The notes below the pieces were generated by a model. It ran no database searches. It saw only the letters and a list, made by a program, of their open reading frames with translations, and was not told the origin of the DNA. Shown piece by piece: positions 34,658 to 63,301 of a stretch of DNA of 64,000 nt. The DNA comes from an uncultured Actinomycetota bacterium. Its GTDB lineage: Bacteria > Actinomycetota > Actinomycetes > Propionibacteriales > Kribbellaceae. Position numbers and translations under genes: made by a program. The DNA is taken from NCBI GenBank assembly GCA_963822475.1, contig CAWGHT010000013.1, forward strand, positions 230,226 through 294,225. The letters are read 5' to 3'. The first letter of the stretch is position 1, and every line of letters starts with the position of its first letter.

Positions 34658-34676
34658 CTCTGACCTGGTCATATAA

Positions 34677-44417: not shown

Positions 44418-44504
44418 GATGGTGGACTGTTCATCTCCAGAAGCGGCAGCAATCGTTGCTCGGTCCCGATAAGCTCGTTTCGTATCCGAGACAGCAAACG
44501 AGGT

Positions 44505-44970
44505 CGATCGCCGCCTGACCGCCCGCGGCGCGGCCACGCGACCCCGGATCGTTGCCGCTGCCGACGAGTTGATTGTCGCTCAAGGGCGTCGCGGCGACCA
44601 CGCTCGACGAGGTGACCGCGGCGAGTGGCGGCTGGGACTATCCGAGTGGGACGAGCAAGTCACAGTTCTACCGGCACTTCAGCGACAAGAGCGCCCTGGT
44701 CCAGGCAGTGATCGCACCGCGGGGCGGCCGGGTCCTCGAGCGCGAGGAGCGTTGTCTCCGCAGGGTCGATTCGCTGAGCGGATGAGGTCGAACGGCACGC
44801 TGTCCGAGGCCGCCGATCCACAAGCGCTGGCGACGGGAATCATGGCTGCTCTCCAGGGTGGTTACGTTCTGGCCCAGGCCGCCCGTGATCCCGGACCGAT
44901 GCAGGTCGCCCTCGACCTTGCGATGAACTCGGTCCGCGCATATGCAAAGCCGGCCGGCAAGAAGAAGTAG
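44505..44970 (+). pseudogene. TetR family regulator pseudogene (frameshifts, 21-bp insertion, internal deletion)
   Basis: TARGAATRPRIVAAA / GVAATTLDEV / SKSQFYRHFSDK / LATGIMAALQGG in different frames. Confidence 0.75.
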
Positions 44971-45059
44971 CCGTCCACACGCTTCCTTCACCCGTCCTGA
45001 TCACGAGGTCGGGGCCGGCCGGGACGCGCCGAGGACATCGGCGTACTCCGGGTGCTTCT

Positions 45060-45284
45060 CGATGACGCCGTGCTAGAGAACCGGTGCGGCCAGGTGGTGG
45101 GTATCGAGGTCAAACGTCATCGACCCCACGATCCGACGACTTCCGCGGCCTCCGGCATCTCCAAGACCGACTCGGCGAAGACTTCATCGCCGGCCTGGTC
45201 CTGCACACGGGCCAGCACACTCTCCCGTTCGGTCCCAAGCTACGCGCCGTGCCGATCAGCGCACTCTGGGACTTGGAGCCCTGA
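45060..45284 (+). pseudogene. C-terminal DUF4143 (PD-(D/E)XK) fragment of an AAA+ ATPase
   Basis: VLENRCGQVVGIEVK then frameshift to DDFRGLRHLQDRLG...GLVLHTG...AVPISALW. Confidence 0.75.
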
Positions 45285-45376: not shown

Positions 45377-45451
45377 TCCCACCCGTCGCCGTGTTCGTCG
45401 ATCGAACAGTGACAGCGCTTCCTGACCTGCTGGTGCAGCGGCGCGTGGGGT

Positions 45452-45486
45452 TTGATGCAGTGAATTCCATGAATCTCAAGGTATTC
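45452..45486 (+). promoter_or_regulatory. Candidate ECF-dependent promoter motif TTGATGCAnnGAATTC (copy 1)
   Basis: 14/16 identical to 63302-63317; about 100 bp upstream of the ECF start. Confidence 0.4.
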
Positions 45487-45564
45487 CGAGCGCCTTGGCA
45501 GCGGGCGTGCAGTGGGGTTACCTTGGCGCGACAGTCCTGGGCCCCTAGGGGAGGGAGCGGCCGG

Positions 45565-46155
45565 ATGGACGTCGCTATTCATGCCGCGGGCGGTGTTCCG
45601 CGTGCCGAGGCGTACTCGCGGTCGCCGTCCGACGCCGATCTGCTGACAAGATGCCGGGAGGGGGACGCTGACGCCTGGGAAACGCTGGTGAATCGCTATC
45701 AACGGCTCGTCTACACCGTTGCACGGCGCAACGGGCTGGGGCGCGATGACGCTGCGGACGTCACGCAGACCGTGTTCGTTGCCCTACTGGAGTCGGGCGC
45801 CAGTATCCGCGATCAGGAGCGGTTGCCGTCGTGGCTGATGACAGTCGCTCGCCGGCAGGCCTGGCGGTTGCGGTCACGTCGTGATCACGAATCGCCGCAG
45901 CCGGACCCGGGCACCGATCTGGCCGACGAGCTGGACAGGTTCGCCGACTGGGAAACGGTCGCCGTGGTGCACGAGGCCTTGGCGCGGTTGGGGCAGCCGT
46001 GCCGGGATCTGGTCGTCTGGTTGTACCTCGATGCCGCCAACCCGTCGTACGCCGAGATCGCGGCTCGGATGGGCAAGGCGATCGGTACGATCGGACCGAT
46101 GCGTGCGCGCTGTCTGCAGACCCTGCGCACGTTCCTCCCTGAGGAGTCATGGTGA
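45565..46155 (+). CDS. ECF sigma-70 factor (CHAT-associated type)
   Basis: DAWETLVNRY, DAADVTQTVF, WLMTVARR, SYAEIA...GTIGPMRARCL. Confidence 0.92.
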   Translation: MDVAIHAAGGVPRAEAYSRSPSDADLLTRCREGDADAWETLVNRYQRLVYTVARRNGLGRDDAADVTQTVFVALLESGASIRDQERLPSWLMTVARRQAWRLRSRRDHESPQPDPGTDLADELDRFADWETVAVVHEALARLGQPCRDLVVWLYLDAANPSYAEIAARMGKAIGTIGPMRARCLQTLRTFLPEESW

Positions 46156-46796
46156 TGACGCGGTTCGAGTTGCTGGCCGACTGGATCGACGATCGGCTCG
46201 GTCCACCGGAGGCGGCCGCGGTCGAGGCGATGGTGGCGGAAGCACCCGAGCTCGCGGCCGCGGCGACCTGGTTGCGCAAGTTCGAGCGGGCAGCGGAGGA
46301 GTTGCCGCTCGAGGATCCGCCGGCGATCGTCGGGCAGCGGCTTCGGCAGTACTTCGACCGTCGGAACGCCGGGTTCGTTGTGCCAACGCCGCTTCCCGAG
46401 CTATGCGCCGAGATGGTGTCCGACAGCCGGCGCGATCTCGCGGTGTCGGGAGTGCGGGCGGTCGGGGCGAGCGATCAGACGATCCAGCTCGCCTATCGCA
46501 GCAGCCGCGCGGACCTCGTGGTCGACATTCACCGCCTCGGGCGTGGGCGCAACCGCCTCGACGGACAATTGCTGCCGACCGAATCAGGCGCCGCCAGGAT
46601 CGCTGAGGTCGTCGCCGCCGGAGTCGGCACCGAATTCACCGCATTGAACGGCGACGTGCTCGGCCGATTCTGTCTGGCGGACGTACCGGACGGGCGCTAC
46701 GAATTGCGCGCGTCGAACGGCGAGTTCGTCGTCATCGCCGAGGTGGCGATCGAGGCCGATCCGACCACAGCGACTCCCGGACCCGAGCTTTCCTGA
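46149..46796 (+). CDS. Putative soluble anti-sigma: ASD-like N-terminus plus C-terminal carboxypeptidase-regulatory-like beta-sandwich
   Basis: ELLADWIDDRL...EAAAVEAMV helical N-terminus; RLDGQL...GRFCLADVPDGRYEL; no TM. Confidence 0.6.
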   Translation: MVMTRFELLADWIDDRLGPPEAAAVEAMVAEAPELAAAATWLRKFERAAEELPLEDPPAIVGQRLRQYFDRRNAGFVVPTPLPELCAEMVSDSRRDLAVSGVRAVGASDQTIQLAYRSSRADLVVDIHRLGRGRNRLDGQLLPTESGAARIAEVVAAGVGTEFTALNGDVLGRFCLADVPDGRYELRASNGEFVVIAEVAIEADPTTATPGPELS

Positions 46797-49654
46797 TGAC
46801 GAGCGCGGCAGTCGGCGAGTTGCTGTCCGAGCCGGACACTCCAGCCCGACTGGCCAGACTGCGCTCGGACGGTCTGGCGACCAGGTCTGGTGTGGCCGAG
46901 CTGCTCGGCGAGGTCGACCAGCTCGTACACTCGGAGCCGACCGCCGCCGGTGAACTCGCGGCGGTCTGCCGACTGGCCGCTGAAGATCTGGGGGACGCCG
47001 ACTTGGCGTCGCGGGCCTGCTATCTGCTCGCTCGGGTCTTGGCCGACCGCGCCGAGTTCGATCACGCGTTGAGTTTGATCGAGGAGGCGCGGTCCGGCTG
47101 GTGGCGCGCAGGCGCACGGCTGTCCGCGTTGCGGACCGATCTCGGAAGGATGCAGATCCTCGACGATCTCGGTCGACATCGCGAGGCGGCCGAGGTGGCC
47201 GAGACTCTGCTGACGCAGCTGGATGCAGTCGATGTGAGCGCGGATCCTGACGAGGTGGAGCTGAGCCGGTGGCTGCACGCCGCCGGACAGGAGAATCTCG
47301 GCGTGGCCCGCGGTTTCCTCGGTCAGCAGGAGGAGGCGCTCGCGGCCTACGCGCGGGCCGAGGCGGAGTACGAAGCCCTCGAGCTCGACGCCGACGTCGC
47401 GCGGGCCCGGGCCAACCGCGGCATCGAACTTCTGGAACTTGGTCGTGCGCACGAGGCCCTCGCGGCTCTCGGGTCCGCCGAAGAGATCTTCCGGGTGGAA
47501 GGTGATCGGTTGTGGTCTGCGAAGTGTGCGGGCCATCGGGCCGAGGTGTTCCGCCAGACCGGGGAGCTGGTAGCGGCCTTGCGATTGCTCGAGACGGCAC
47601 ATGCCGAGCTGGCGGAGCTGGACGCCGTGCCGGAGGCGATCCGCCTACGGCTCACGATCGCGGGTACCTGTCTTGATCTTGGACTGTACGACGAAGCACT
47701 GGTGGCGGCCTCGGCCGTCGCCGAGCAGTCGGCCGAGCTCGGAATGCGCCACGACACCGCGACGGCTCAGCTGACTCAAGGGTTGGCGCAGCTCGGTGCG
47801 GGCCGGCCCGCACCGGCGGAGACGGCCATCCGGGCCGCCGCCGATCTCGCCGTGTCGGTCGGCGACGATCGGTTGCAGGCCCAGATCCGATTGGCCGAGG
47901 CGGAGCTCGCGGCGGCGGACGGCCGGGCCGCTGACGCCGCATGCCTCGTGGAGCAGGCGGCGGCGGAGCTCAAGGCAGGAAACTGGCCCGCGCCGCTGTT
48001 GTCCGCCACCCTGCGCCGGATCGACCTGACGCTCGACGAGGCGACGATGGGAACAGCGCTCGACGATGCCGCGGCAATGCTCGAACAGCATCCGCTGACC
48101 CATCTGAGATATCCCTATCTGCTGCGGGCAGCCCGGCGTCAGCTGGCCGGTGGCCGGCGCGAGGAGGCCGAGGAATACCTGCGAGAGGCGGTCGATGACG
48201 TCGAACGGATGAGTGGCGTCCTTCCGGACCACACCATGCGTCTGGCTTTCCGGACCGACAGGCTGGCGGCGTACGACGAACTTGTCGCGCTGCTGGTCGA
48301 GCGGGGCGCCTCGGACGAGGCCCGAGCCGTGAGCGACCGCGCCAAGGCGCGCACTCTGATCGATCTGCTCAACGGGGCGATCCGGCCGGGGCAGCAGCTC
48401 GCCGACCTCCGGCCGCTGATCGGCGACCTGGCCGCGACCTACAACAGCCTGACCGCCGCGGAGCATCCGGACCGTCGGAACGCACTGCACCGCCGCGCGA
48501 ACGATCTCGAGCATCAGCTCGGACTGGCCCAGGTCCGGCTCGCCGCCATGTCGCCGACGGTCACCGCTTCCGAGCCAGGAGAACCTGCTGAATCACCCGC
48601 ATCCGGGCGATCCGGCCTCGCCGCGGTCATCACGTTCCACGCCGTCGGCGACGACCTGGTCAGCTTCGTCGAGCGTGCCGGCCACGACCTCGCCGTCCAT
48701 CGGGAGCGGTCCGTGATGCCCGAGTTGACGCTGGAGCTCGATCGCTTGACCGCGCAGTGGAGCCGCTTCCGCCTCGACGACGTCTTCGTCCGCCGTCACG
48801 CCGACACTCTGGTCGCGACCACCAACGAGATCCTCGGCCGTATCTACCGGTGGCTGATCGCTCCGATCCGCGAAGTCCTCGACGAGAGCACCGGCGAGAG
48901 CCTGATCGTCGTACCGGACCGGCGGCTGTTCAGGGTGCCGTTCCATGCCTTGTACGACGGTTCCGCGCACCTGAACCGTGATTGGGACATCACCGTGCAG
49001 CCGGCTCGCGGTGGCCCGATTGTTGCCTCCGGCCTGCACCTTCCCGGACCACGCTCCTTGCTGTTCGCCGTCGCTGACGCCAACGCGCCCTCGGTCGGCG
49101 CCGAGTCGGACGCTCTGGCCGGGTTGTTGCCGACGGCGCAGGTGTTCGGAGATGCAGACGCGACCAGTGCGGCGTTGTTCCGTGAACTTGGTGAAGCGCC
49201 GGCGCCGGCGGTTCTGCACATCGCCTGCCACGGCCTGTACCGGCCGAGCAATCCGGCATTCTCGTCGTTGCGGCTCGCGGACCGCTGGGTGACCGCCGCC
49301 GAACTTCTGGAGCTCAACCTGCGCGGAAGCCTGGTCACGTTGAGTGCCTGTGAATCGGGCCGGCACGACCAGGTCGGTGCCGAGCCGGTCGGCCTGGCGT
49401 GGTCGTTCCTGGCGGCCGGCGCGCGTGGTGTGGTGGTGAGCCAGTGGCTCGTCTCCGACACCGTGACCGTCGAGCTGATGACGGCGTTCTACCGCGCGCT
49501 CGCCGACGGATCCGTGCCTGCCGCCGCCTTGCGGACCGCCCGGTCGTCGATCGCGCGACGGCACCCGCACCCGTACCACTGGGCACCTTTCAGCTACGTC
49601 GCGTCGCCTGGCGCGTCCGTTCCGGCACCATCCCCGATCGGAGTCAGCACATGA
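46796..49654 (+). CDS. TPR-CHAT (caspase HetF-associated) cysteine protease
   Basis: Long helical TPR-like repeats; catalytic VLHIACHG (His) and VTLSACESG (Cys); HPYHWAPF. Confidence 0.92.
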   Translation: MTSAAVGELLSEPDTPARLARLRSDGLATRSGVAELLGEVDQLVHSEPTAAGELAAVCRLAAEDLGDADLASRACYLLARVLADRAEFDHALSLIEEARSGWWRAGARLSALRTDLGRMQILDDLGRHREAAEVAETLLTQLDAVDVSADPDEVELSRWLHAAGQENLGVARGFLGQQEEALAAYARAEAEYEALELDADVARARANRGIELLELGRAHEALAALGSAEEIFRVEGDRLWSAKCAGHRAEVFRQTGELVAALRLLETAHAELAELDAVPEAIRLRLTIAGTCLDLGLYDEALVAASAVAEQSAELGMRHDTATAQLTQGLAQLGAGRPAPAETAIRAAADLAVSVGDDRLQAQIRLAEAELAAADGRAADAACLVEQAAAELKAGNWPAPLLSATLRRIDLTLDEATMGTALDDAAAMLEQHPLTHLRYPYLLRAARRQLAGGRREEAEEYLREAVDDVERMSGVLPDHTMRLAFRTDRLAAYDELVALLVERGASDEARAVSDRAKARTLIDLLNGAIRPGQQLADLRPLIGDLAATYNSLTAAEHPDRRNALHRRANDLEHQLGLAQVRLAAMSPTVTASEPGEPAESPASGRSGLAAVITFHAVGDDLVSFVERAGHDLAVHRERSVMPELTLELDRLTAQWSRFRLDDVFVRRHADTLVATTNEILGRIYRWLIAPIREVLDESTGESLIVVPDRRLFRVPFHALYDGSAHLNRDWDITVQPARGGPIVASGLHLPGPRSLLFAVADANAPSVGAESDALAGLLPTAQVFGDADATSAALFRELGEAPAPAVLHIACHGLYRPSNPAFSSLRLADRWVTAAELLELNLRGSLVTLSACESGRHDQVGAEPVGLAWSFLAAGARGVVVSQWLVSDTVTVELMTAFYRALADGSVPAAALRTARSSIARRHPHPYHWAPFSYVASPGASVPAPSPIGVST

Positions 49655-50916
49655 GCAGCCTTCGCCTCGTCCGACGTACGGCGAGCCTCGTCCTGATCGT
49701 TCTGCTCGGCTGGTTGGCCACTTCGCTGCCGGCCGACGCCGATCAGACCCTGTACAGCCCGGATGCCCCTGACGGCATCGTGGTCAAGATGGACATCGCC
49801 GACGGCTACCGGATCAGTGACGTGGAGGCGGCGTTCCCGGTGGTGGTGGACAGTGCGGTGCTGGCGTCGCGCGGCATCTACCGGGTCCGCCCGACCGATC
49901 CGAAGTATCTCAAGGAGGGCAAGAGCAAGGAGTTGGCGGACAAGATCCAGCACGCTACAGGCGTCGTCTACGCTGAGCCCGACGAGATCGCGAGTCTGCT
50001 GGACACCCGCTTCCATGCCTGGCCCGAGGGAAGCGCCGAGGACGCGGGAACTGATCCAGCGGTCTGGCTCGATCAGCAGGCGATCTCGGAAATGCGCCTC
50101 GGCGAGGCACACCAGGACAGCCTCGGTGCCGGCATCGTCGTCGCCGTACTCGACACAGGTGCAGACCTGAACCACCAAGCGTTGCAGAACCGGCTGGTTC
50201 CGGGCTGGGATTACGTCGACGACGACCCTGACCCTTCGGAGGAGGCGCCGGGCATTCCGGACGGGACGGGACCTTCCGACACGGCCTACGGACATGGCAC
50301 ATTCGTCAGCGGCGTCACCGCGATGGTCGCGCCGGACGCGCGGATCATGCCCCTCCGGGTCCTCGACAGTAACGGGCGGGGCAATGTCTTCGCCGTCGCG
50401 CAGGCCCTGCTCGATGCCGCCGCGGCAGGGGCGCAGGTGGTCAATCTCAGCTTCGGTACGCCGACGAGGCCGTCGAAGCTCCTCGCCGAGACCATCAAAG
50501 ACCTGAAGAAGCGTGGGGTCGTCGTGGTCGCCGCGGCCGGCAACTCCGGAACCGACAAGAAGCAGTACCCGGCCGCGCAGCCGGAGGTGATGAGCGTCGC
50601 GGCGCTGGGAACCGAGAGCGGCGACCTGGCGTCCTTCTCCGGGTTCGGAGAATGGATCGACGTCGCGGCGCCGGGCGACGACATCGCCGGGCCCGTTCCC
50701 GGCGGGCGGTACGCCTGGTGGCGCGGTACGTCGATTGCGGCGCCGTTCGTGGCCGGCCAGGTCGCGCTGGTGCGGTCGATGGCCCCGAAACTCGCGCCCG
50801 CCAAGGTTTTCGAGGCCGTCCTGCGGACGACCGACAAGCTGAACAAGGGCCACAAGGTGCACTCCGGATCGATCGATGTGGTCGGCAGCCTGGACTTCAC
50901 TGCCGCCCACGACTGA
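49651..50916 (+). CDS. Secreted S8 subtilase
   Basis: Signal peptide ending ADA; VAVLDTG (D), GHGTFVSG (H), AAAGN, GTSIAAP (S). Confidence 0.92.
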   Translation: MSSLRLVRRTASLVLIVLLGWLATSLPADADQTLYSPDAPDGIVVKMDIADGYRISDVEAAFPVVVDSAVLASRGIYRVRPTDPKYLKEGKSKELADKIQHATGVVYAEPDEIASLLDTRFHAWPEGSAEDAGTDPAVWLDQQAISEMRLGEAHQDSLGAGIVVAVLDTGADLNHQALQNRLVPGWDYVDDDPDPSEEAPGIPDGTGPSDTAYGHGTFVSGVTAMVAPDARIMPLRVLDSNGRGNVFAVAQALLDAAAAGAQVVNLSFGTPTRPSKLLAETIKDLKKRGVVVVAAAGNSGTDKKQYPAAQPEVMSVAALGTESGDLASFSGFGEWIDVAAPGDDIAGPVPGGRYAWWRGTSIAAPFVAGQVALVRSMAPKLAPAKVFEAVLRTTDKLNKGHKVHSGSIDVVGSLDFTAAHD

Positions 50917-51865
50917 GGGCGCGGGCTGCCCACGCACTGCGGGCGATGTCGTCGAGGTCGTGCACCGCGGTCCAACCCAGTTCGCTGCGAATCTTCGTGG
51001 GGTCGGCGATCACCTGGGCGGCGTCGCCGGCCCGTGCCTCGGCGGCGTGCCGTTCCAGCGGCCGACCAGTCACCCGGCGGACGGCCTGGATCATCTCGAG
51101 AACGCTGGTGCCGGTTCCGGATCCGATGTTGTAGATCGCGCCGACCGGGCCGATCCGCAGCCGGTCGAGGACGCACCGATGCGCGGCGGCGACATCGCTC
51201 ACGTGGACGTAGTCGCGGACACAGGTGCCGTCCGGCGTCGGGTGATCGATGCCGTTGACGGAGATGATCGCGCCGGTCTCGGCAGCCATGAGTAACTTGG
51301 GGATCAGGTTGTCCGTGCCGGTGTCGGCCAGTTCGGGGGTGGCTGCCCCCCCGACGTTGAAGTACCGCAGTATCGCCCAGTCGAGGCCTTCCGCGGTCGC
51401 GGTGTCGCGCAGCAGACGTTCGGCTGCCAGCTTGCTCCAGCCGTACGGCGAGGCTGGCTCGGTCGGCGAGTTCTCGGTGACCGGAGCCGCTGTCACCGGA
51501 CCGTAGACCGCTGCACTGGACGAGAACAGGATCCGTCCGACGCCGCTGGAGACCATCGCGGTCAGAACGCTGTGCAGACCGTGCACGTTGTGGTGCTGGT
51601 AGTCGAGTGGGCGGCGAATCGATTCCGCGACCGACTTCCGGCCGGCGAGGTGGACGATGCCGTCCACGCCGTACGTCGTCAGAACCCGGACCAGCAGCCG
51701 GGTGTCATGGATCGATCCGCCGACGAACGGCACCGTGCCGTCGAGCCGGATGGCGTCGCCGGTGGACAGGTCGTCCACCACCACGACCCGCTCGCCCGCT
51801 CCCTGCAGCGCCCGGACGACATGCGCCCCGATGTACCCCGCACCCCCGGTGACCAACCAGCTCAT
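50897..51865 (-). CDS. galE: UDP-glucose 4-epimerase
   Basis: VTGGAGYIG, FSSSAAVYG, YGWSK, LRYFNVGGA, DGTCVRDYVHV. Confidence 0.9.
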   Translation of the reverse strand: MSWLVTGGAGYIGAHVVRALQGAGERVVVVDDLSTGDAIRLDGTVPFVGGSIHDTRLLVRVLTTYGVDGIVHLAGRKSVAESIRRPLDYQHHNVHGLHSVLTAMVSSGVGRILFSSSAAVYGPVTAAPVTENSPTEPASPYGWSKLAAERLLRDTATAEGLDWAILRYFNVGGAATPELADTGTDNLIPKLLMAAETGAIISVNGIDHPTPDGTCVRDYVHVSDVAAAHRCVLDRLRIGPVGAIYNIGSGTGTSVLEMIQAVRRVTGRPLERHAAEARAGDAAQVIADPTKIRSELGWTAVHDLDDIARSAWAARALSRGRQ

Positions 51866-51885
51866 GAGCCCTCCCCAACCTTGAG

Positions 51886-52935
51886 TCATCCGTCGCGGAA
51901 CCGCAGCACCCGCTTGGCCGTCGTACGCATCGCGCTGTCCAGACCGCTGAACGGGAGCCGCTCGATCCGGTAGGAGTTCGACAGGTGCGGAGTGGCGCCG
52001 AATGCGGTCTTGAAGGCAGCGAGGCCGGATCCGGGCTTGCTGTCGCCCATGTGGTACAGCTGAGCGCCGGTCGCGCAGGCGTCCTCGATGACCTGCTGCT
52101 GCAGGAGGTCGTTGGCCGCGGTCGGCCGTGCGATGCGCTGGTCCATCGCGCCGCGCCAGTACCGGACATGCCGGCCTTGCCGCAGCACGATCAACGCCGC
52201 GGCCGGTTCGTCGCCGAGCCAGGCCACCCAGATCGCACACCGCTCGCCGAGGTGACGCGCGACCGTCGCGAACTTGCGCTGTGGATTCGCACGATCGGCG
52301 CGCCACCTCGCGAGCGCGAGCGGCTCGTGCTGCTGCGCCGCCCAACGATCGACCGACAGCCGGTAGAGGTGGTCGAACGCGTCGACCAGCCGGCCGGTTC
52401 TGTCCACCTCGACCCGCAGGCCGGAGCGCCCGGCTTTGCGGACGGCCCCGCGCACGTTGGTGCGGAACTTGCTCTTCCAGAGCGCCTCGTACCCGCAACG
52501 GAGATCGAGGCAGTAGCTGATGTGCTCGGTGACCGCGAAACTCGCCGGCGGTCGACGCCATGCCGTTGCGGCGAAGGGGCCCGGCCGGAGGGTGAGGCGA
52601 AGCCCGTGGCGGGCCAGCAGTTCGTTGTACACGAGTTCTACGTGCGTGTCGTCGATGGGGCCGTCGCTCAGCGGGCCGCCGATTCCCCAGTCGAACGGCC
52701 AGGACGACTCGACGGCGCAGGCAGCGGGTAGTGGGCGGCGAGCGGCGAATGGCAGGATCAGGCGGCGGCCGTCGTCGAAGCGGTAGAACCGGCTGCTGTC
52801 GCGATAGGGACCGACCTCGCAGATCGCGGCGAGCCACTCGGGCGTCTGCGCGGAGCCCGCTTCGGGATCGAGTGCGAGGATCTCGCGCCAGACGCCGGCC
52901 GGTGCCGGGCTCAGCACCTCGACGAGCTTCACCAT
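51886..52935 (-). CDS. FemAB/BcsL-like tandem GNAT (Acetyltransf_6)
   Basis: FRTNVRGAVRKAGRSGL, YWRGAM, NDLLQ, GLAAFKTAFGA. Confidence 0.8.
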   Translation of the reverse strand: MVKLVEVLSPAPAGVWREILALDPEAGSAQTPEWLAAICEVGPYRDSSRFYRFDDGRRLILPFAARRPLPAACAVESSWPFDWGIGGPLSDGPIDDTHVELVYNELLARHGLRLTLRPGPFAATAWRRPPASFAVTEHISYCLDLRCGYEALWKSKFRTNVRGAVRKAGRSGLRVEVDRTGRLVDAFDHLYRLSVDRWAAQQHEPLALARWRADRANPQRKFATVARHLGERCAIWVAWLGDEPAAALIVLRQGRHVRYWRGAMDQRIARPTAANDLLQQQVIEDACATGAQLYHMGDSKPGSGLAAFKTAFGATPHLSNSYRIERLPFSGLDSAMRTTAKRVLRFRDG

Positions 52936-55523
52936 CGTGACCTCCGGGCAGCGAGTACGGCGAGCCGCGCGGTGCGGACCGGCAATCCGCGAAGGCCATC
53001 CTCGCGCAGGCCGAGGATGGCGAGCATCACGGCTGATCGGGATGGAACTTCCGGTCCGCGGCATCGGTCACACTCACCGGGACCATGCCCCAACAGCTCG
53101 GTGCACGCCTCGGCAAGTCCGCTCTGGTACTCGCCGGCGGCGATCACGAATCCGGCGTCGCGGACTGCCGGCGCTGCGTTCCGGGGTGCCCGAGCCAGGT
53201 GTGCGAGTCCGAACATCGACACGTCCTCGGCGGTGTCGCCGACCGCGAGTGCGAAGCCGGGCGGCCGGGATCGCTGCGGGTCGAGCGACGAGGCGAACTC
53301 TCGCAGGCCGGTGCCTTTGTCGACGCCGATCGGAACGATGTCCGTTTGGCCGTCGCCGGGCACGATGCGGACCTTCGCAAGAAGCTCCGCGCCGAGCTGC
53401 TGGAGGATGTCGTCCGGCAGCGGACCGCCGGACGAGTGGGAGGCCCGCACCACGTAGCGGTAGCGGTCGTCAAGTCGTACGTCGGGCAAGGCGGCCAGCC
53501 GGCAGCGGATGAACTCGATGGCCTGGCCCGCGGAGGTGCTGCGGAGATCCGTCGAACGGTGCGAGCGATGGTCGTAGCTGACTGCGCCGTACTCGGCGAC
53601 AGCTCCTCGAAGGCCGAATGCCGTACATCGTGCGGCGGCCTCGGGCAGGCTCCGGCCGGTCGCGAGAATCGGGCGGAAACCATGGGTGGCCAGCGCTCGC
53701 AGGGCGAGCACACCGGCCGGGGACGGGTTCGGAAATCCGAGGGGATCCGTCTCTAGGGTGCCATCGAGGTCGATCGCACACAGTTCGCCGCCACCGTCGA
53801 GCCCGGTCGCGTCCAGGGCCGACGCGAGATAGTCGCAGACAGCTGTCGCGGACAGATCGTCGGCGCGTTGCCGGTGGAGGTCACCGGCCCGGCGCATCCG
53901 CCACAGATGCGCGAGCCGGTAGATCAGCCAGCGTTCGCCGTCGACGGTCCGTCCGGTCCGGCGCTCGTAGGTCGTCCGCAACATGGCCTCGAACCCGGGG
54001 GACGGTGGATCGGCGGACGCCCCCGCCAGATCGAAGATCTCGTCGTAGCAGCCGAGCTCCAAGCTCCCGAACGACCGCTCGTCGAAGCCGACCTTGCGCA
54101 GTTGGTCGCCTGGCAGCCAGAACCGGACGTCGGTCTGGCCGTCGGGGACGCTCGGCGCTGTCGTCCGCAAGAGCCCGCGGACGATGCCGTCCAGCAGCAG
54201 CACCTGGCCGGCTGGCGCGAGCCGGCCGAACATCCCGCTGAGGAGGCCGGCCGCGACCTCCCAGACCGGAGCGCGGCCGCGAAGTCGCGCGACCGGGTCA
54301 CGATCGACTCGCAGCGCACGGCCACGATCGGAGACATAGCGCACCACGCCTGCCGCGAGTACCTGCTCATCCGGGCGTTTCAGCGCTGCCGGGAGCCACT
54401 CGCGGTACAGCAGCCCATCCGCGAGGCCGTAAGTCCGCGGGCAGTGCTGGGGCAGGCGGTTCGCGACCGTCACGGCATGCCGCCCGAAGTATCCGAGCCC
54501 GGCACCTTCTACTGCGATCTCGCTCGGCCGGGTCGTTCCGTCGGGACCGGTGATCCGTACGGTGTACCTCGCGCGCGCCCGGCTCCGTCGCGTGTTTCCT
54601 GACTGCCAGGGGACGGCTCGGGCCTCAACCAGGTGGCCAGGACCCAGCAGGGACTCGAGTTGCGCGGCGACTGCGGGTTCGCGCAGGCGGGAATGTACGG
54701 TCCACTCCGACCACGGCAGATAGACGCCGGCCCATGGCTCGAGCGCGGGCGGAGGATTCTGCCCGGCGAGTGCCAGCAGCATCACGATGCGGTCCTCGGG
54801 CAGGCCGATCGCGGTAGCGGCAGCGGCCAGCGCGCTGCCGGTCACCGGCGGGTCGTCGACCAGGACCACGTGTCCACCGGCCGCGGCGACTTCGCGCAGG
54901 ACGCCTCGCTCCTCGCGCCGCAGCCCGCGGCCCGGCCGGTAGCTGAGCAGCGAGGCGGTCACCGACCGGGCCCGCAACGCTGCGACGCACAGCGGTGCGA
55001 GATAGCTGCCCGAGGTGCGGATCCCGACCACGCAGACCGGAGTGCCGGTGCCGAATCGATCCACGAAGCGACCGGCGAGCTCGGCGATGTCGTCCGGATG
55101 CTGGTCGAAGCTGCGGAAACACGACGGCACCCGGAGCACGTCGTCCGTCCGTGGCAGCCGGAGCTCGTCGAGCCCGAGGTGGCCGGCAGGGCCGTTGCCG
55201 AGGACGGCCGCGGCCAGCGAGATCGTTGCCTCGCCCAACGAGCGCCGGGTTGCGTGGAGTGCCGGCGGGACAGGTGCCTGGAGGAGGCGCGCGGCGGCGC
55301 CGGCAACCAGGCCGCCTGCGCGGGCCCCGCGGCCGTGCAGGTAGTCGGCCGCGCGCCGCAACAGCAGGGGGTCGGGATGAAGGCGGTCCTCGACGAGTTG
55401 GTGCAGGCCGGCGGCGAGCAGGTAGGCGTCGAGCCAGTCGCCCGCGGCGGCGGCCCGGCGGAGTTGCCCGGTGAGTTCGTCGGCGGTCATCAGCAGGTCG
55501 AGGGGTTGCCAGGGAGTCGTCAC
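52929..55523 (-). CDS. 864-aa multidomain protein: PRTase-like + kinase-like + HAD-IIB phosphatase
   Basis: VGIRTSGSY and VVLVDDPPVTGS; GLLYREWLP...VPDGQ...LRKVGFD; IDLDGT, ATGR, DKGTG, GDTAED; GTG start overlaps the upstream TGA. Confidence 0.75.
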   Translation of the reverse strand: MTTPWQPLDLLMTADELTGQLRRAAAAGDWLDAYLLAAGLHQLVEDRLHPDPLLLRRAADYLHGRGARAGGLVAGAAARLLQAPVPPALHATRRSLGEATISLAAAVLGNGPAGHLGLDELRLPRTDDVLRVPSCFRSFDQHPDDIAELAGRFVDRFGTGTPVCVVGIRTSGSYLAPLCVAALRARSVTASLLSYRPGRGLRREERGVLREVAAAGGHVVLVDDPPVTGSALAAAATAIGLPEDRIVMLLALAGQNPPPALEPWAGVYLPWSEWTVHSRLREPAVAAQLESLLGPGHLVEARAVPWQSGNTRRSRARARYTVRITGPDGTTRPSEIAVEGAGLGYFGRHAVTVANRLPQHCPRTYGLADGLLYREWLPAALKRPDEQVLAAGVVRYVSDRGRALRVDRDPVARLRGRAPVWEVAAGLLSGMFGRLAPAGQVLLLDGIVRGLLRTTAPSVPDGQTDVRFWLPGDQLRKVGFDERSFGSLELGCYDEIFDLAGASADPPSPGFEAMLRTTYERRTGRTVDGERWLIYRLAHLWRMRRAGDLHRQRADDLSATAVCDYLASALDATGLDGGGELCAIDLDGTLETDPLGFPNPSPAGVLALRALATHGFRPILATGRSLPEAAARCTAFGLRGAVAEYGAVSYDHRSHRSTDLRSTSAGQAIEFIRCRLAALPDVRLDDRYRYVVRASHSSGGPLPDDILQQLGAELLAKVRIVPGDGQTDIVPIGVDKGTGLREFASSLDPQRSRPPGFALAVGDTAEDVSMFGLAHLARAPRNAAPAVRDAGFVIAAGEYQSGLAEACTELLGHGPGECDRCRGPEVPSRSAVMLAILGLREDGLRGLPVRTARLAVLAARRSRW

Positions 55524-56275
55524 GGCAACCACCTCCCGGTCCGGCGGTACAGCCGCCACAGCTTGGTGGTGAGGAGGTCGCGTGGTCTGGCCACGCGGAC
55601 CTGCCCGGCCAGCCAGTTGGTGAGCGTCTCGTCCGTCGTCGCCCGGGTGACGGTCAGCCGGGCGATGGTGAACGGTGGATCGCAGTCCGGGCTGAGGGCG
55701 TTCTTCACCGAGCAGGCGGACCGGTAGCCGGCGTCGGCGACGAGACGCCGTACCGCAGGGCTGGAGTAGCCGTGCGGATAGGCGAAGCTGTGGATCGGCT
55801 GCCCGAGCTGCTGCTCGAGATCGCGACGACAGTGCGTCACCTCGTTCCACACTGCCGCCGGGCGGAGCGTATCGAGCTCGGGGTGGGTCACCGAGTGCGC
55901 GCCGATCTCGTGCCCCAGCACCGCGAGCTCCCTGATACCGGACCAGCTGAGCATCCGGTCTCCGCCAGGGCTGCGACCGCAGACGAATCCCGTGGTGACG
56001 TAGACGGTCGCGGGGAAGTCGTGTGCCAGGAGCAGCGGTGCGGCGGCTTCGAGGGTGTCGGCGAAGCCGTCGTCGAAGGTGATGACGACGGGCTTCGCGG
56101 GCAGCTGTCGCTGCGCCAGGGCGGTGCGCAGCGCGGTCAGGGTGATCGCGTTGAGCCCGGCAGCCCTGATCAGCTGAAGGTGCCGGCTGAAGGTCTGCGG
56201 TGTGACGGTGAACTGCTCGATCCAGACCGATGGCGTCCGGCTCACCGAGTGATACAGGAGGATGGGGACGTTCAT
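55520..56275 (-). CDS. Polysaccharide deacetylase (NodB/CE4)
   Basis: LLYHSV, ITFDDG, GAHSVTHP, FAYPHG. Confidence 0.92.
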   Translation of the reverse strand: MNVPILLYHSVSRTPSVWIEQFTVTPQTFSRHLQLIRAAGLNAITLTALRTALAQRQLPAKPVVITFDDGFADTLEAAAPLLLAHDFPATVYVTTGFVCGRSPGGDRMLSWSGIRELAVLGHEIGAHSVTHPELDTLRPAAVWNEVTHCRRDLEQQLGQPIHSFAYPHGYSSPAVRRLVADAGYRSACSVKNALSPDCDPPFTIARLTVTRATTDETLTNWLAGQVRVARPRDLLTTKLWRLYRRTGRWLP

Positions 56276-56517
56276 CGGTGCCTGCCTCGGGGGATGGGCA
56301 GAAGGGCGCCGACCAGCGTCAGGACAACAAGCACGAGGAGCAGCCTGGACGCCGACCACACGCCGGCGATGGCCAGTGCCTCGGATCCGATCGCGGTGAC
56401 CGCGAGGCTCGTTGCCACGATGAGCAGCCGGCGCAGCGGGGGGTCGAGGTCCAGTCGGCGGACCAGCGCCCAGCCAGGCGCCAAGGCGATGAACGCGAAC
56501 ACGACGATCGCTCTCAT
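56272..56517 (-). CDS. Small 3-TM membrane protein
   Basis: Hydrophobic, LAPGWAL motif, 4-bp overlaps on both sides. Confidence 0.7.
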   Translation of the reverse strand: MRAIVVFAFIALAPGWALVRRLDLDPPLRRLLIVATSLAVTAIGSEALAIAGVWSASRLLLVLVVLTLVGALLPIPRGRHR

Positions 56518-59084
56518 CGAGCCACGCCGGGACGGACGTAGATCGTGGCATCCTGATTACGGAATGCGACCCGATAGCCCTTCGTGCCGGCCAGGACGTC
56601 GTCGAGCCGCGGCACCGCGTTGGCGGGGAGTACGCCGGTGTAGCGCACGGAAACCTGTTGGGACTTCGTGAGGACGACGTAGACCGCTGTACGGGACGGC
56701 GGGCCGGCCACCTCCTCGATCGCCGTCAACGGTGCGGAGGCGGCGAGTGGTTTGCGGTTCGGCGGGAGGTTCTCGAGGAACTCGTACCGGTAGTCCTCGT
56801 AGTGCGTGAACGCCCAGGGGAAGTTGGCGGTCGCGGCGACGACCAGTGAGTCGCGCGGTGCGTGCGCGTACAGCCAGGTCGAGGCCGCGACCTCGTCGGG
56901 GGTGAAACGGTTCGCTCGTTCCTTGCCGTAGTACGCCAGGGTGAACGCCGCGGCGATCGCCAGAACGCAGATCAACGCTACCGGCAACGACCATCGGGCT
57001 GGTCGGGGCGAGTAGACGAATCCGGCGGCGAGCAGGGCGCAGAAGGGCAGTGCGAACAGGTAGATGCGGAACAGCATCTCGCCGCCGTAGCTGTTCATCG
57101 CGAGCAGGGGGAGCGGGCTGATCGCGAGTACGGCGCTGACCCGGATCGGTGCCGCCGCACGCCGGAGGCGAACAGCTCCGGCGATCGCCAGGATGCCCAG
57201 GCACGCGGTCAGACCGCGATCGGCGAGCAGGACCAGGCGTTGCTCTGGTCCCGCCTGGCTGAGATCGACGAACGTCGTCTGGGTGTTCGACGCCGGACGC
57301 CCGATCGACTCGACGATCCAGTAGAGGTTCTGACCGAGGAACTGGGTTGCCATCAAATAGATCCATGCTCCGGTGAGTCCGGCCAGCGCCAGCGGCAGCC
57401 AGACAGGCCGGACCTGCCTGATCAAGACGAGCAGGGTCAAGGCCGACAACAGCATGAACGGTGTGAGTTGGTGACTGCTGACGATGGCGAGCATCAGCAG
57501 GAGCACGATGCCTATGAGCGCCCGGCGGTGGCGTCTGGCCGTGGGCCCGAGTCGCCGCAGGCAGATGGCGAGGACGGTCAGATGCAGTACGTACGCGAAC
57601 GCCTGAGGAGAGAAGTACTCCTGCCCGATCCAGTTGCCCAGTACGAACAACAGGAGCGCGAACCAGACCCGGCGTCGATCATTGCTGAAGTGGTCGAAGA
57701 TCAGCCACAAAGGCACGAGCATCAAGGCCGTGTTCACAACCGGTGCCCAGCCCGCGTAGCTCAGCGTGGCGACCCCTGAGGCCTTCGTCAGCTCCGCGTT
57801 CAGCGCGAAGAAGCCCGGCCAGGCGTGATAGGCGTTCAGGGTCTCGATGTTGGGGTTCACCGCCGCGTGCCGGTCGATGTAGTCGACGATGCCGATGTGC
57901 TTCCACGCCCAGGAATACCGAAGGGTTCCGTACAGCAACGTAGGCGTGCCGTGCAGTACGACGATCAGCGCGAGCAGGTAGCCGGCAGGCACGAGGCGGC
58001 GATGAATGGTGATCACCGCGCCACAGAGGATCGTCACCAACGCAATCCAGAACGCGACGGGCAGCACACTGACCAGACCGAGATCCGTCATCGCATCGAG
58101 GTCGACCGACGGCAAGGACAACGCCCACACGAGAAGCGCAGCAACCACCGGCAGGTGCGCCAGCACCGTCTGCCGATGGGGGAGCGCCCGTCCGACCGCG
58201 TAGCCGAACGAGGTCGCCGCCAGTCCGGCGACCACTGCGGCGCCACGGCGCCCGCCGGCCAGCAGTCCGTGTGGCAGGACTCGGCGCACATAGTCGCGCT
58301 CGGAAGACAACGCGGCTGTGCGGCCGGCGACCCGCGCCACCGTCGCCTTCGAGAGACCCTCCGAATAGCAACGCGACCGGAAGTACGACCACGTCGCGCG
58401 TTCCGAGGGCACGTGATGGCGAACCTTGGCCCGTGGGTCGTGCAACAGCACCCCCTGCGGGAACGCGGCCGCGGCCCGGATGCAGAGTTCGGTCTCCTCG
58501 CAGCCGACCGGCCGCTGTCCGACCCTGCCGAGTTCCGGGCGGAACCCGCCGACCGTCGCCAGCACCGATCGGCGGAAGGACATGTTCGCGCCGACGAAGT
58601 TGCGCACGGCCGCGGTTGTTCGTGGCAGTCCCGAATGGCTGCAACCGATCACCCAGTCGAACTCGGGCGGAAACCATCGCGGTCGGCCGGTTGCCCAGGC
58701 TGGATCGACGTGGCCGCCGACGCCCAGGACGGCGGGATCGGCGTACTCCTCGGTCAGTCGTTCGAGCCAGTCGGGTTCGGCCACCGCGTCGTCGTCCAGG
58801 AACGCCACGATGTCCGACGTACTGGCGTCGACGCCGGTATTGCGCGCTCCGGAGAGACCGCGAGGGCCGTCGCTCTCGACAATGCGGATGCCCTCCAGAC
58901 CACGAGCGCGGTCGGCGAGCTCGGTCGAGTGGTCTACGACCAGGACGACTTCGGCGGCGGGCTGGGTCTGCGTCAGCACCGAGGTGATCGCGTCCACGAT
59001 CTGGGCCCAGCGCTCGACGGTGTAGCAGCAGATCACCACAGAGACCGTGGGGATCGGCGGTGCGCTCGTGACCGTGGCCGTCAT
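56514..59084 (-). CDS. GT2 glycosyltransferase fused to a multi-TM (polymerase/GT-C-like) domain
   Basis: VVICCYT, AFLDDD, GCEETELC; then about 12 TM with YSWAWKHIG, AYHAWPGFF, YFSPQAF. Confidence 0.85.
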   Translation of the reverse strand: MTATVTSAPPIPTVSVVICCYTVERWAQIVDAITSVLTQTQPAAEVVLVVDHSTELADRARGLEGIRIVESDGPRGLSGARNTGVDASTSDIVAFLDDDAVAEPDWLERLTEEYADPAVLGVGGHVDPAWATGRPRWFPPEFDWVIGCSHSGLPRTTAAVRNFVGANMSFRRSVLATVGGFRPELGRVGQRPVGCEETELCIRAAAAFPQGVLLHDPRAKVRHHVPSERATWSYFRSRCYSEGLSKATVARVAGRTAALSSERDYVRRVLPHGLLAGGRRGAAVVAGLAATSFGYAVGRALPHRQTVLAHLPVVAALLVWALSLPSVDLDAMTDLGLVSVLPVAFWIALVTILCGAVITIHRRLVPAGYLLALIVVLHGTPTLLYGTLRYSWAWKHIGIVDYIDRHAAVNPNIETLNAYHAWPGFFALNAELTKASGVATLSYAGWAPVVNTALMLVPLWLIFDHFSNDRRRVWFALLLFVLGNWIGQEYFSPQAFAYVLHLTVLAICLRRLGPTARRHRRALIGIVLLLMLAIVSSHQLTPFMLLSALTLLVLIRQVRPVWLPLALAGLTGAWIYLMATQFLGQNLYWIVESIGRPASNTQTTFVDLSQAGPEQRLVLLADRGLTACLGILAIAGAVRLRRAAAPIRVSAVLAISPLPLLAMNSYGGEMLFRIYLFALPFCALLAAGFVYSPRPARWSLPVALICVLAIAAAFTLAYYGKERANRFTPDEVAASTWLYAHAPRDSLVVAATANFPWAFTHYEDYRYEFLENLPPNRKPLAASAPLTAIEEVAGPPSRTAVYVVLTKSQQVSVRYTGVLPANAVPRLDDVLAGTKGYRVAFRNQDATIYVRPGVAR

Positions 59085-61258: not shown

Positions 61259-62466
61259 CGCCGGGTCACCTCGCGGTAACGCCAACGACTCCACGCGTAG
61301 GCGGCAGGGCCGACACAGATCCCCAGCCGCTCGCGCCAGACGAGCTCAGCCGGAAAGTCGTTGCCACGGCCAACATTCCGGACCGATCCGGGTGAGAGCA
61401 GATGCCGCAGCGCCGGAACCGCGCGCCGTGTCATCGTGATGGCGTCGCGCGGATTCCGGCGTACCGCCGCCGACAGGTACGCACCGAGCCCGACGCCGTA
61501 CCCGTAGGCCTGGCGCCGCAGGCTCGCGTAGTCGCGCCGGTGGTGATGCCGGACGATCGCGGCCGGTTCGTAGACGAGGGTGCGGCCGTCGAGCACGACG
61601 CGCAGGAACGCGTCGAGGTCATCGCCGCCCTTGGCCGGCGTGCCAGCACCGGTCGCCGGATCGAAGCCCCCGTTCGTGCGCAGCCAATCGGTGCGGAAGG
61701 CCATGTTGGCGCCGGAGCCGAAGCGACCGGCGGTGAACGGGAACAGGCGGTCGGCCGGTGGCCTGCGCAGGCTGTAGGTCCGGGGCTCGTACCCTCGAGC
61801 GAACCCGCCGGCGTCCTCGATCCACCGTTGCGCCGCCGTCTCCAGTTCGGCCGGGAGGATCAGGCCGGTCACGCACGCCACCTCGGCGTCCGTGAACGGT
61901 CTGCTGATCGCTGCCAGCCAGTGTGGATCGATCTCCACGTCGTCGTCGGTGAAGGCGGCGATCGTACCGGTCAGGTGTTCGATCGCGACGTCGTGCGCAT
62001 AGCCGAGACCCGGCCGGTCCGCTCGCACATACCGGGGCGAGAACGGCCAGCGGTCGACGGACTCCCGCAACGTTCGGTCGGTACGGTCACTCGACGGCGC
62101 GCTGTCGACGACAACGACGTCGTACGACGGATGCGCGCACGTCGCCAGCGTGTCGAGGCATCGGACCAGGCCGGCCGGCCGCTCCCGGGTGGCGATCACG
62201 ACGGTCGCGGTCGGAGGATCGACGGGCCGAGGTACGACATGACCGGACGTCGTGCCGAGTTGTTCGGCGACCGCTCGGCGAAGGTCGTCCGCGGTCGGTG
62301 TGCTGCCGATGCGGAGATGGATCTCTCCCAACGGTCGCTCGCGGGAGCGGACCAGCAGGCGCGCGGCGCCGTATCCGCTCGTGTTGCCGAGGGGCGGATC
62401 CGGCCACGGACGGTCCAGGTGCAGATCGCCGACGAGAATCCGCCGGCCGCCGGACGGACCGCTCAC
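61255..62466 (-). CDS. GT2 glycosyltransferase
   Basis: VVIATRER, VVDSAP, AFTDDD, GSGANMAF, GGDDLD. Confidence 0.9.
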   Translation of the reverse strand: MSGPSGGRRILVGDLHLDRPWPDPPLGNTSGYGAARLLVRSRERPLGEIHLRIGSTPTADDLRRAVAEQLGTTSGHVVPRPVDPPTATVVIATRERPAGLVRCLDTLATCAHPSYDVVVVDSAPSSDRTDRTLRESVDRWPFSPRYVRADRPGLGYAHDVAIEHLTGTIAAFTDDDVEIDPHWLAAISRPFTDAEVACVTGLILPAELETAAQRWIEDAGGFARGYEPRTYSLRRPPADRLFPFTAGRFGSGANMAFRTDWLRTNGGFDPATGAGTPAKGGDDLDAFLRVVLDGRTLVYEPAAIVRHHHRRDYASLRRQAYGYGVGLGAYLSAAVRRNPRDAITMTRRAVPALRHLLSPGSVRNVGRGNDFPAELVWRERLGICVGPAAYAWSRWRYREVTRR

Positions 62467-63248: not shown

Positions 63249-63301
63249 GTGTTCCCCCCACTGATGCGGTTATGTCCCACTGGTGCGCGACGGGTACGGC
63301 G

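Follow-up and report, generated by a model that had tools for sequence, protein, structure and literature searches.

A conserved actinobacterial operon with ECF54-type gene context encodes a putative anti-sigma factor next to a TPR-CHAT protease

The four-gene cassette and the closest described systems

Group ECF54 of the extracytoplasmic function (ECF) sigma factors is an actinobacterial group for which the work of Huang et al. (2015, J Bacteriol 197:2517), as summarized in PMC8999054 and PMC7826278, lists a carboxypeptidase(-regulatory) protein, a CHAT protein, and a subtilase as products of neighboring genes, with a proposal of proteolytic control. Casas-Pastor et al. (PMC7826278) stated that the group has no putative anti-sigma factor and listed a 4Fe-4S protein as a conserved neighbor. 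In other systems, namely, Csx29/Csx30/RpoE (CASP-sigma; type III-E craspase; PMC10028731), DdvA/DdvS (PMC11506125), and CalpL/CalpT/CalpS (bioRxiv 10.1101/2024.05.08.593097), a protease acts on the anti-sigma factor and not on the sigma factor, as in classical regulated proteolysis. We analyzed a four-gene cassette with the ECF54 gene context in a 64,000-nucleotide stretch of DNA (hereafter, the window) from an uncultured bacterium of the Kribbellaceae (assembly GCA_963822475.1, contig CAWGHT010000013.1, positions 230,226 to 294,225). Control of the sigma factor by an anti-sigma factor and a TPR-CHAT protease is plausible for this cassette, and a shared promoter-like motif supports an output in secreted proteins; direct control of the adjoining glycan genes and an immune role were not supported. 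The cassette comprises the following genes.

45565 to 46155, plus strand: ECF sigma factor of 196 residues (Sigma70_r2, 3e-11; TIGR02937, 4e-19) in an ECF54-type gene context
46149 to 46796, plus strand: soluble anti-sigma-like partner of 215 residues, with a predicted zinc-less four-helix domain (residues 5 to 73) followed by an Ig-like/CarboxypepD_reg-like beta sandwich (residues 84 to 201)
46796 to 49654, plus strand: predicted cytoplasmic TPR-CHAT protease of caspase fold, 952 residues (CHAT PF12770, 3e-50; TPR_12), with the dyad H812/C852
49651 to 50916, plus strand: predicted secreted S8 subtilase of 421 residues (Peptidase_S8, 4.5e-41), with a signal peptide and the triad D168/H215/S361

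The preliminary description of this DNA had announced four overlapping genes, and all were found on the plus strand of the window (G+C content, 65 to 72%). The overlaps amounted to 7 nucleotides at the sigma/partner junction (sigma TGA at 46153 to 46155, partner ATG at 46149), 1 nucleotide at the partner/CHAT junction (partner stop at 46794 to 46796, CHAT ATG at 46796), and 4 nucleotides, ATGA, at the CHAT/S8 junction (CHAT stop at 49652 to 49654, S8 ATG at 49651). A ribosome-binding site, GGGAGG, lies 5' of the sigma ATG at 45565. The claim of an intact ECF sigma factor agreed with its matches to the Pfam and NCBIfam models (TIGR02937 being the sigma70-ECF family). In the CHAT protein, the CHAT domain is located behind the TPRs, and the announced His-Cys dyad was found as H812 in ACHG and C852 in SACES, the cysteine being invariant and the histidine nearly invariant among 16 CHAT homologues (35 to 75% identity). 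The S8 triad, also announced, is embedded in the motifs DTG (D168), HGT (H215), and GTS (S361).

Of the four proteins, S8 alone has an N-terminal hydrophobic signal, which is also present in 51 of 65 S8 homologues. Hydrophobic segments are lacking in sigma, partner, and CHAT and in all of their homologues (66 to 69 for each protein), so that the earlier statements of a soluble partner and of a CHAT protein devoid of a signal peptide stand. Sigma, partner, and CHAT are predicted to be cytoplasmic and S8 to be exported. No hydrophobic segment was present at the C terminus in any of the 65 S8 homologues. S8 therefore is not a mycosin of a type VII secretion system, since it lacks the C-terminal anchor; its score with the mycosin model TIGR03921 was 177.7 bits against a cutoff of 278.75. 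The window contains no array resembling clustered regularly interspaced short palindromic repeats (CRISPR), and to this extent the label "CRISPR-free" given to the cassette is correct. No cas domain was detected among the annotated neighbors in the window or among the annotated conserved flank gene clusters of the 77 loci described below. An Rfam scan of the window retrieved a tRNA-Thr (TGT) at 34585 to 34658 as its sole match and sole RNA gene.

The cassette is a member of a widespread actinobacterial operon with the published ECF54 gene context, of a kind that has been described bioinformatically and not experimentally; a literature search retrieved no experimental paper on it. The CarboxypepD_reg-like, CHAT, and Peptidase_S8 neighbors of ECF54 correspond exactly to this four-gene set, and the restriction of ECF54 to Actinobacteria has its counterpart in 75 actinomycetotal loci out of 77. 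The ECF54 label rests on gene context; by sequence, the sigma factor matches generic ECF models only. The "carboxypeptidase" of ECF54 appears from its sequence to be the partner, a CarboxypepD_reg-like beta sandwich without a catalytic domain. The published accounts differ from our findings in three respects: they mention no anti-sigma factor, whereas the "carboxypeptidase" protein is modeled here with an anti-sigma-domain fold; their treatment of ECF54 reports no promoter, regulon, glycan link, or link to the secreted protein P0124 (see below); and the 4Fe-4S neighbor listed by Casas-Pastor et al. was not seen here.

With respect to other systems, craspase also has a cytoplasmic TPR-CHAT protein, the gene of which adjoins those of an ECF-type sigma factor and of an inhibitor that binds this factor; such an inhibitor is predicted here. 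The closest solved structures to the CHAT protein were those of craspase TPR-CHAT/Csx29, with a match over the CHAT domain only (E ~1e-10). However, the CHAT protein is not a Csx29 orthologue, its score with the Csx29 model NF041237 being 37.9 bits against a cutoff of 300 over residues 803 to 900 only. Unlike craspase, the cassette always includes an S8 subtilase, and the window contains neither gRAMP/Cas7-11 nor a CRISPR array; a target RNA cannot be the input. The partner, with its predicted anti-sigma-domain fold and Ig-like sandwich, has no detectable similarity to Csx30, as it matched no Csx30-type family in NCBIfam, Pfam, or PADLOC. In the DdvA-DdvS system of Myxococcus xanthus (PMC11506125), an ECF sigma factor is likewise under an anti-sigma factor tied to a TPR-CHAT with a conserved dyad, and cleavage by CHAT has been proposed. 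DdvA unites a cytoplasmic zinc-binding anti-sigma domain and a periplasmic TPR-CHAT in one transmembrane protein, whereas the corresponding parts would here be separate soluble cytoplasmic proteins without zinc ligands, and no RseP step would be needed. Having neither a membrane segment nor a zinc motif, the CHAT protein is no fusion of the DdvA type.

The CalpL-CalpT-CalpS system resembles the proposed one in that a soluble protease cleaves a soluble anti-sigma factor, thereby releasing an ECF-like sigma factor, but it depends on type III CRISPR, uses a SAVED-Lon protease instead of a CHAT, and takes cyclic oligoadenylate as its input. ChrR, of the ChrR-SigE pair of Rhodobacter sphaeroides (PDB 2q1z), is similarly soluble and combines an N-terminal anti-sigma domain with a C-terminal beta-rich sensor domain. 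ChrR differs from the partner in binding zinc and in having a cupin C terminus in place of the Ig-like/CarboxypepD_reg-like sandwich, and no protease gene is linked to it. By analogy, the logic of the cassette parallels that of Csx29/Csx30/RpoE, CalpL/CalpT/CalpS, and DdvA/DdvS, the components of which are not orthologous to those studied here.

CHAT homologues numbered 727, mostly full length (~950 residues). A genome scan identified 77 cassette loci (designated L) in species-level genomes, the gene content of which was read by tblastn and extraction of open reading frames (ORFs). Two of these loci were from metagenome-assembled genomes (MAGs) of Anaerolineae and all others from Actinomycetota, including Nocardioides, Propionibacteriaceae, Acidimicrobiia, Rubrobacteraceae, Solirubrobacteraceae, Kineosporiaceae, and many MAGs; the closest named relative was Kribbella sp. 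WER1 (CHAT 75% identical). The order sigma-partner-CHAT-S8 on one strand was kept except in five permuted loci and a few incomplete contigs, and it was found in 50 of the 52 loci in which all four genes could be delimited, with junctions that were mostly 4-nucleotide overlaps. In the permuted loci, the CHAT gene comes first and is followed by sigma, partner, and S8, with the sigma-partner overlap retained. Sigma homologues (32 to 74% identity) were found near the CHAT gene in 69 loci, directly upstream of it except in the permuted ones. Together, the four genes make up a single conserved unit with tight coupling. Adjacent genes included an ABC exporter (fused ABC_membrane and ABC_tran domains) directly after S8 in 24 of the 77 loci (for example, L004:14534-16417) and, in 12 loci, a nearby Ser/Thr protein kinase; neither was present in this window. 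We read the loci as consisting of a constant four-gene signaling core and variable, lineage-specific adjacent output genes.

Copy number varied among genomes. One soil MAG has four divergent paralogues of the whole cassette (L014, L032, L050, and L077), another has three (L027, L059, and L074), and the partner-S8 pair is duplicated in L025. The genome under study contains, elsewhere, two further, distant CHAT-domain genes (contig positions C9:180983-181777 and C6:649786-651996; 33% and 27% identity, respectively).

The predicted anti-sigma domain of the partner

Fold comparison alone was informative for the partner, which had no significant family match by itself in Pfam or NCBIfam and for which a profile sequence search of the PDB returned nothing meaningful. 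In its family, CarboxypepD_reg matches were obtained for 11 of 44 homologues (best E value, 9e-6) and weak zf-HC2 matches for 3 of 44; a model named "putative anti-sigmaE" weakly matched residues 7 to 70 of the partner. The alignment of 44 partners revealed an N-terminal pattern, LxDWxEGRL...WLRxF...PPxVRQRLRQxF, resembling that of anti-sigma factors, no HxxxCxxC zinc ligands, and a beta-rich C-terminal half with the motifs FDSRxD ... DGQ ... DGDxxGRF.

AlphaFold2 modeled the whole partner with a predicted local distance difference test (pLDDT) score of 92, as four helices (residues 5 to 13, 19 to 31, 33 to 51, and 59 to 73) followed by the beta sandwich, and the N-terminal 82 residues alone with a pLDDT score of 89. 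Foldseek searches of the PDB with the whole partner gave ChrR as the top match (E = 0.013), the remaining matches being Ig-like sandwiches. With the N-terminal domain as the query, all of the top 15 matches (16 of 23 overall) were anti-sigma domains crystallized with ECF sigma factors, including RskA (4nqw), ChrR, RslA (3hug), RsiW, and MucA; RslA was superimposed with a root mean square deviation of 1.9 to 3.2 Å over 44 to 53 residues (21 to 25% identity). The model contains the N-terminal helical bundle (helices I to III plus helix IV) that characterizes class I anti-sigma domains. The partner is thus modeled as a zinc-less anti-sigma-domain fold followed by a beta sandwich, in line with its preliminary designation as anti-sigma-like, and the published statement that there is no anti-sigma factor is probably wrong for this module. 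Such a fold would correct the ECF54 description without excluding membership in the group.

The partner family is large and uniform, with 262 clusters at 50% identity matched at E ≤1e-30 and 1070 at E ≤1e-10. Among the 150 matches listed, almost all were 197 to 230 residues in length, a few were shorter (116 to 192 residues), and none was a fusion. The one support for the predicted binding of the sigma factor by the partner is the adjacency of their genes, with translational coupling, in at least 60 loci.

Candidate promoters, the P0124 gene, and the accessory island

A dyad search in the 250 nucleotides 5' of 70 sigma genes revealed AGTGC-N16-TGAT upstream of 13 of them, compared to a maximum of 6 in shuffled sequences. 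A mismatch-tolerant form, ACnAGTGC-N15-TTGATCCA, was located 100 to 210 nucleotides before the start codon in 31 loci, and the bipartite motif AGTGC-N15-TTGATCC is accordingly located upstream of the sigma gene in 31 genomes besides this one. A position matrix was constructed from these 31 sites, with the window excluded, and scored the two candidate promoters in the list below.

45424 to 45466, plus strand: candidate sigma-dependent (autoregulated) promoter, with box 1 GCTGGTGC at 45429 to 45436 and box 2 TTTGATGCA at 45451 to 45459; score, 21.8
45519 to 45524, plus strand: possible housekeeping-type -10 hexamer TACCTT (TAnnnT), beginning 46 nucleotides before the sigma start codon; weak, pattern-level
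63274 to 63316, plus strand: second copy of the candidate sigma-dependent promoter, with box 1 ACTGGTGC at 63279 to 63286 and box 2 GTTGATGCA at 63301 to 63309; score, 27.0
63387 to 64000, plus strand: start of the P0124 gene, the predicted target, which continues beyond the end of the window to ~65687

In the whole genome (8.49 Mb), only three sites scored 21.8 or more, namely, one on contig C3 (28.5) and the two copies in the window, of which that at 63274 ranked second genome-wide; the next best site scored 20.9. Seven column-permuted matrices gave 0, 0, 0, 0, 3, 2, and 2 sites per genome at the threshold of 21.8, and one of the seven whole-genome scans contained a site scoring at least 27. 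A single genomic site could therefore be due to chance, but chance is not a reasonable explanation for two correctly oriented sites within 18 kb around the cassette.

Position 46 of the motif, 10 nucleotides past box 2, is a purine in 90% of the training sites and is followed by a T-rich patch. Both features fit an assignment of box 1 as the -35 element and box 2 as the -10 element, with starts near 45469 and 63319. Sigma-dependent transcripts would begin ~7 to 10 nucleotides past TTGATGCA at 45459 and 63309, and the predicted start of the operon transcript likely lies near 45469, leaving a leader of ~95 nucleotides. Across 69 loci, TAnnnT hexamers were enriched between positions -80 and -41 relative to the sigma start codons, with equivalent positions in 28 loci, which suggests a second, basal housekeeping promoter downstream of the ECF-type one.

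Two other readings of this region were rejected. A leaderless, longer sigma factor starting at the in-frame ATG at 45469, which coincides with the predicted transcription start, was discarded because in relatives the frame does not stay open upstream and because GGGAGG precedes 45565. Pairing of TTGATC, as a sigma-70 -35 element, with the downstream T-rich patch gave a spacing misfit, and no TAnnnT is present there.

P0124 is a predicted secreted protein of 766 residues in which a signal peptide and a Thr/Ala-rich linker precede an IU_nuc_hydro-like domain (9e-9); the C-terminal ~280 residues are unannotated. Its gene begins 12.5 kb downstream of the cassette, and the 63274 site lies 70 nucleotides before its ATG at 63387. 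In a relative MAG (proteins 61 to 74% identical), a P0124 orthologue (64% identical) occupies the same place and is preceded by both boxes (CTGGTGC ... GTGATGCATCGAA), the spacer having diverged. In L009, from the Solirubrobacteraceae, a P0124 homologue directly follows S8 on the same strand. The motif common to the operon and to the P0124 gene, which is situated at the distal end of the glycan cluster, argues for the secreted-protein output that had been postulated, and the operon probably switches on itself and this nearby gene. The part of the gene encoding the Thr/Ala-rich linker, just past the signal peptide, is a tandem repeat of 15 nucleotides (4.2 copies; 63498 to 63560).

The third site (C3:722751-722793, minus strand; L082), the best of the genome, precedes an unconvincing ORF of 87 residues, the product of which has a hydrophobic helix at its N terminus and matches no family, and a transcript from this site would run antisense into a DUF418 gene. 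In three unrelated loci, a copy of the motif in reverse orientation, directed back into S8, is located just past the S8 stop codon, at L010:14161-14203, L070:14093-14135, and L056:13932-13974 (minus strand), with scores of 25.8, 26.1, and 14.5, respectively; these could be antisense promoters or promoters of uncalled minus-strand genes. Small ORFs after extra motif copies in other loci were considered as common targets or pro-peptides and rejected, as they are mutually nonhomologous and look spurious.

The interval between the cassette and P0124 is occupied by one further feature.

50897 to 63269, minus strand: glycan biosynthesis cluster, convergent with the cassette, identified by Pfam and NCBIfam matches

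In coordinate order, this cluster encodes an epimerase, a GNAT/FemAB-like protein, a phosphoribosyltransferase (PRTase)-like/HAD fusion, a carbohydrate esterase family 4 (CE4) deacetylase, a family 2 glycosyltransferase (GT2) with transmembrane segments, a Wzx-like/APH fusion, and two further GT2s. The large fusion protein encoded at 52929 to 55523 ends in a HAD-IIB phosphatase domain. The earlier claim that the cassette is attached to a glycan locus holds with one qualification: the glycan genes, all on the minus strand, adjoin the cassette and are not co-transcribed with it. That the nucleoside (ribo)hydrolase-like domain of P0124 might trim ribosyl groups of the glycan is pure speculation.

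Comparison with related genomes shows the cassette, the glycan cluster, and P0124 to constitute one accessory island. The CHAT gene was missing from all 36 of the other species that were sampled in the genus and also from 24 genomes belonging to other families of the order, and the large GT2 and P0124 were absent from 40 congeners; the upstream Mo-oxidoreductase gene has orthologues 84 to 94% identical in ~12 of these 40. Homology to one congener stops at position 45068 of the window without resuming, so that the island has its left edge somewhere from this position to the promoter (45424); no right border was found in this comparison. The segment from 44424 to 45068 is the remnant of a TetR-family gene (ORF 44569 to 44970, with matches to the TetR C-terminal domain only) that is 87 to 93% identical to the congener. 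Genes between the tRNA-Thr and 44.3 kb include ones conserved in congeners, so that the tRNA-Thr region probably represents a distinct, older site of integration rather than a border of the sigma/glycan island.

Kribbella sp. WER1 has the same layout, with sigma, partner, CHAT, and S8 followed by convergent epimerase, GNAT, HAD, CE4, GT2, and APH genes, but its upstream flank differs; the cassette and the glycan cluster therefore move together. Homologues of most of the glycan genes (GT2s, Wzx/APH, GNAT, CE4, and PRTase/HAD; 4 to 6 per locus) lie no more than 10 kb from the cassette in six distant loci (L009, L020, L023, L026, L042, and L056), on variable sides and in variable orientations (in L056, on the same strand after S8). 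Thus, the adjacency is not unique to this genome, and the glycan link is real but confined to a subfamily of ~6 of the 77 loci.

Proposed cleavage of the partner and alternative explanations

In the mechanism that we propose, the helical domain of the partner would sequester the sigma factor, and its beta sandwich would dock on the TPR-CHAT protease. The TPR array would sense a cytoplasmic cue and thereby activate CHAT, which would cleave the partner and free the sigma factor. The freed sigma factor would transcribe its own operon, in a positive feedback yielding more secreted S8, and would also transcribe P0124. The output would consist of enzymes outside the cell, working at a surface that the co-inherited glycan cluster decorates. 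That CHAT cleaves the partner is plausible by analogy with the systems discussed above. We assign a probability of about one-half to this mechanism as a whole, from cleavage of the anti-sigma factor to transcription of the operon and of P0124. Operon conservation, the predicted partner fold, the CHAT dyad, topology, and the motif sites support it, as does the retention of sigma-partner adjacency in the permuted loci.

A weak additional test was provided by mirror-tree analysis of Kimura distance matrices, computed over 50 loci for each of the four proteins. Partial correlations for adjacent genes were 0.33 (sigma-partner), 0.58 (partner-CHAT), and 0.53 (CHAT-S8), compared to -0.02 (sigma-CHAT), -0.03 (partner-S8), and 0.15 (sigma-S8) for nonadjacent ones. 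This chain of correlations fits predicted sigma-partner binding and partner-CHAT contact.

Several points weigh against the proposed mechanism. The chain of correlations is also the gene order, and recombination within the operon could generate it. The Foldseek E values for the N-terminal domain are individually weak (0.9 to 9); this is expected for a helical domain of ~80 residues, and the evidence is the composition of the match list. The motif could bind another regulator, and the assignment of -35 and -10 among its elements is tentative. The site on contig C3 could be a real third target or a chance occurrence. S8, being outside the cell, could be an output or the maker of an extracellular signal; we prefer the role of output because S8 is co-transcribed behind an autoregulated-looking promoter. 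Finally, no copy of the motif scoring at least 12 was found on the strand of the glycan operon in the window, and the six glycan-linked loci had only a weak site (11.8), before the Wzx/APH gene of L023. The notion that the sigma factor switches on the glycan genes, put forward in the preliminary description, was not supported, the operon being without a motif copy and convergent with the cassette.

The alternative that fares best, which we nevertheless consider unlikely, is that the partner is an ordinary anti-sigma factor whose beta sandwich senses the cue, CHAT and S8 being only outputs of the sigma regulon. Both protease genes are co-transcribed with the sigma gene behind the autoregulated-looking promoter, ChrR-type soluble anti-sigma factors sense through their C-terminal domain and ChrR is the top Foldseek match, and Casas-Pastor et al. 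(PMC7826278) cautioned that conserved neighbors may be targets and not regulators. However, CHAT and the partner co-occur very strictly, with coupled translation, in more than 60 genomes, and the partner-CHAT partial correlation is the strongest of all. Moreover, outputs are usually variable among lineages, as are the ABC exporter, the glycan genes, and P0124 here, whereas CHAT never is.

A variant of the proposed mechanism that differs in its input has a low probability. S8 would mature an exported pro-peptide, and the reimported peptide would gate partner cleavage by binding to the TPRs of CHAT, in the manner of RRNPP receptors. Phr peptides are matured by subtilisin-type proteases. The secretion predicted for S8, the ABC exporter that follows it in 24 loci, the CHAT-S8 partial correlation, and a weak match of the TPR region to Rap phosphatase receptors would suit such a loop. 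However, neither the operon nor its vicinity yielded a conserved small ORF for a pro-peptide, the annotated stretch of 8 kb upstream and 19 kb downstream contains no gene for an ABC exporter or an Opp-type importer, and the TPR matches are generic.

We give as little credence to the published ECF54 proposal, in which no anti-sigma factor exists and the system stays off because CHAT, S8, and the "carboxypeptidase" degrade the sigma factor. Degradation is stated for ECF54 in PMC8999054, with the degradation of AntA by ClpXP as a precedent, and the absence of a putative anti-sigma factor is stated in PMC7826278. Yet the "carboxypeptidase" is predicted to be a sandwich without a catalytic domain preceded by an anti-sigma fold, S8 is predicted to be exported and could not reach the sigma factor, and the sigma-CHAT partial correlation is close to zero. 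Cleavage of the partner is preferred over degradation of the sigma factor because an anti-sigma domain is predicted here. Least probable is an anti-phage or other conflict system with CHAT as a caspase-like effector triggered by infection, akin to the immune-like role suggested earlier: CHAT proteases are known in craspase, type III-B cascades, and DdvA, and the cassette is accessory, patchy (1 of 41 species of the genus), and present in 3 or 4 paralogous copies in some MAGs, but PADLOC recognized no more than a generic subtilase and, marginally, IetS for S8 and nothing for sigma, partner, or CHAT, the window has no CRISPR array, the Csx29 model scored 38 against its cutoff of 300, and the flanks contain glycan genes, ABC exporters, kinases, and metabolic genes, without enrichment in defense genes.

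More generally, we tentatively suggest that the CRISPR-independent, caspase-like TPR-CHAT protease may be the dedicated activator of an ECF sigma factor that cleaves a new class of soluble, zinc-less anti-sigma factors with an Ig-like docking or sensing domain. With at least 262 clusters at 50% identity, this module would be common among the Actinomycetota of soils and have lineage-specific extracellular outputs, here S8, an IUNH-like protein, and a surface-glycan island.

ECF54 is among the ECF groups listed without a known regulator, and no member of it has been studied experimentally. The gene context itself is not new; our analysis adds a candidate anti-sigma factor, a candidate promoter with two sites in one genome, a first predicted target gene, and a recurrent linkage to glycan genes and P0124. 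The module is common and is now directly testable. If CHAT does not cleave the partner, the cassette would consist of an ordinary sigma/anti-sigma pair with co-regulated proteases. If it does, the protease/anti-sigma/sigma logic of craspase, CalpL, and DdvA would be a general, free-standing design of bacterial signaling, and a caspase-fold protease of Actinobacteria would have a clear physiological substrate.

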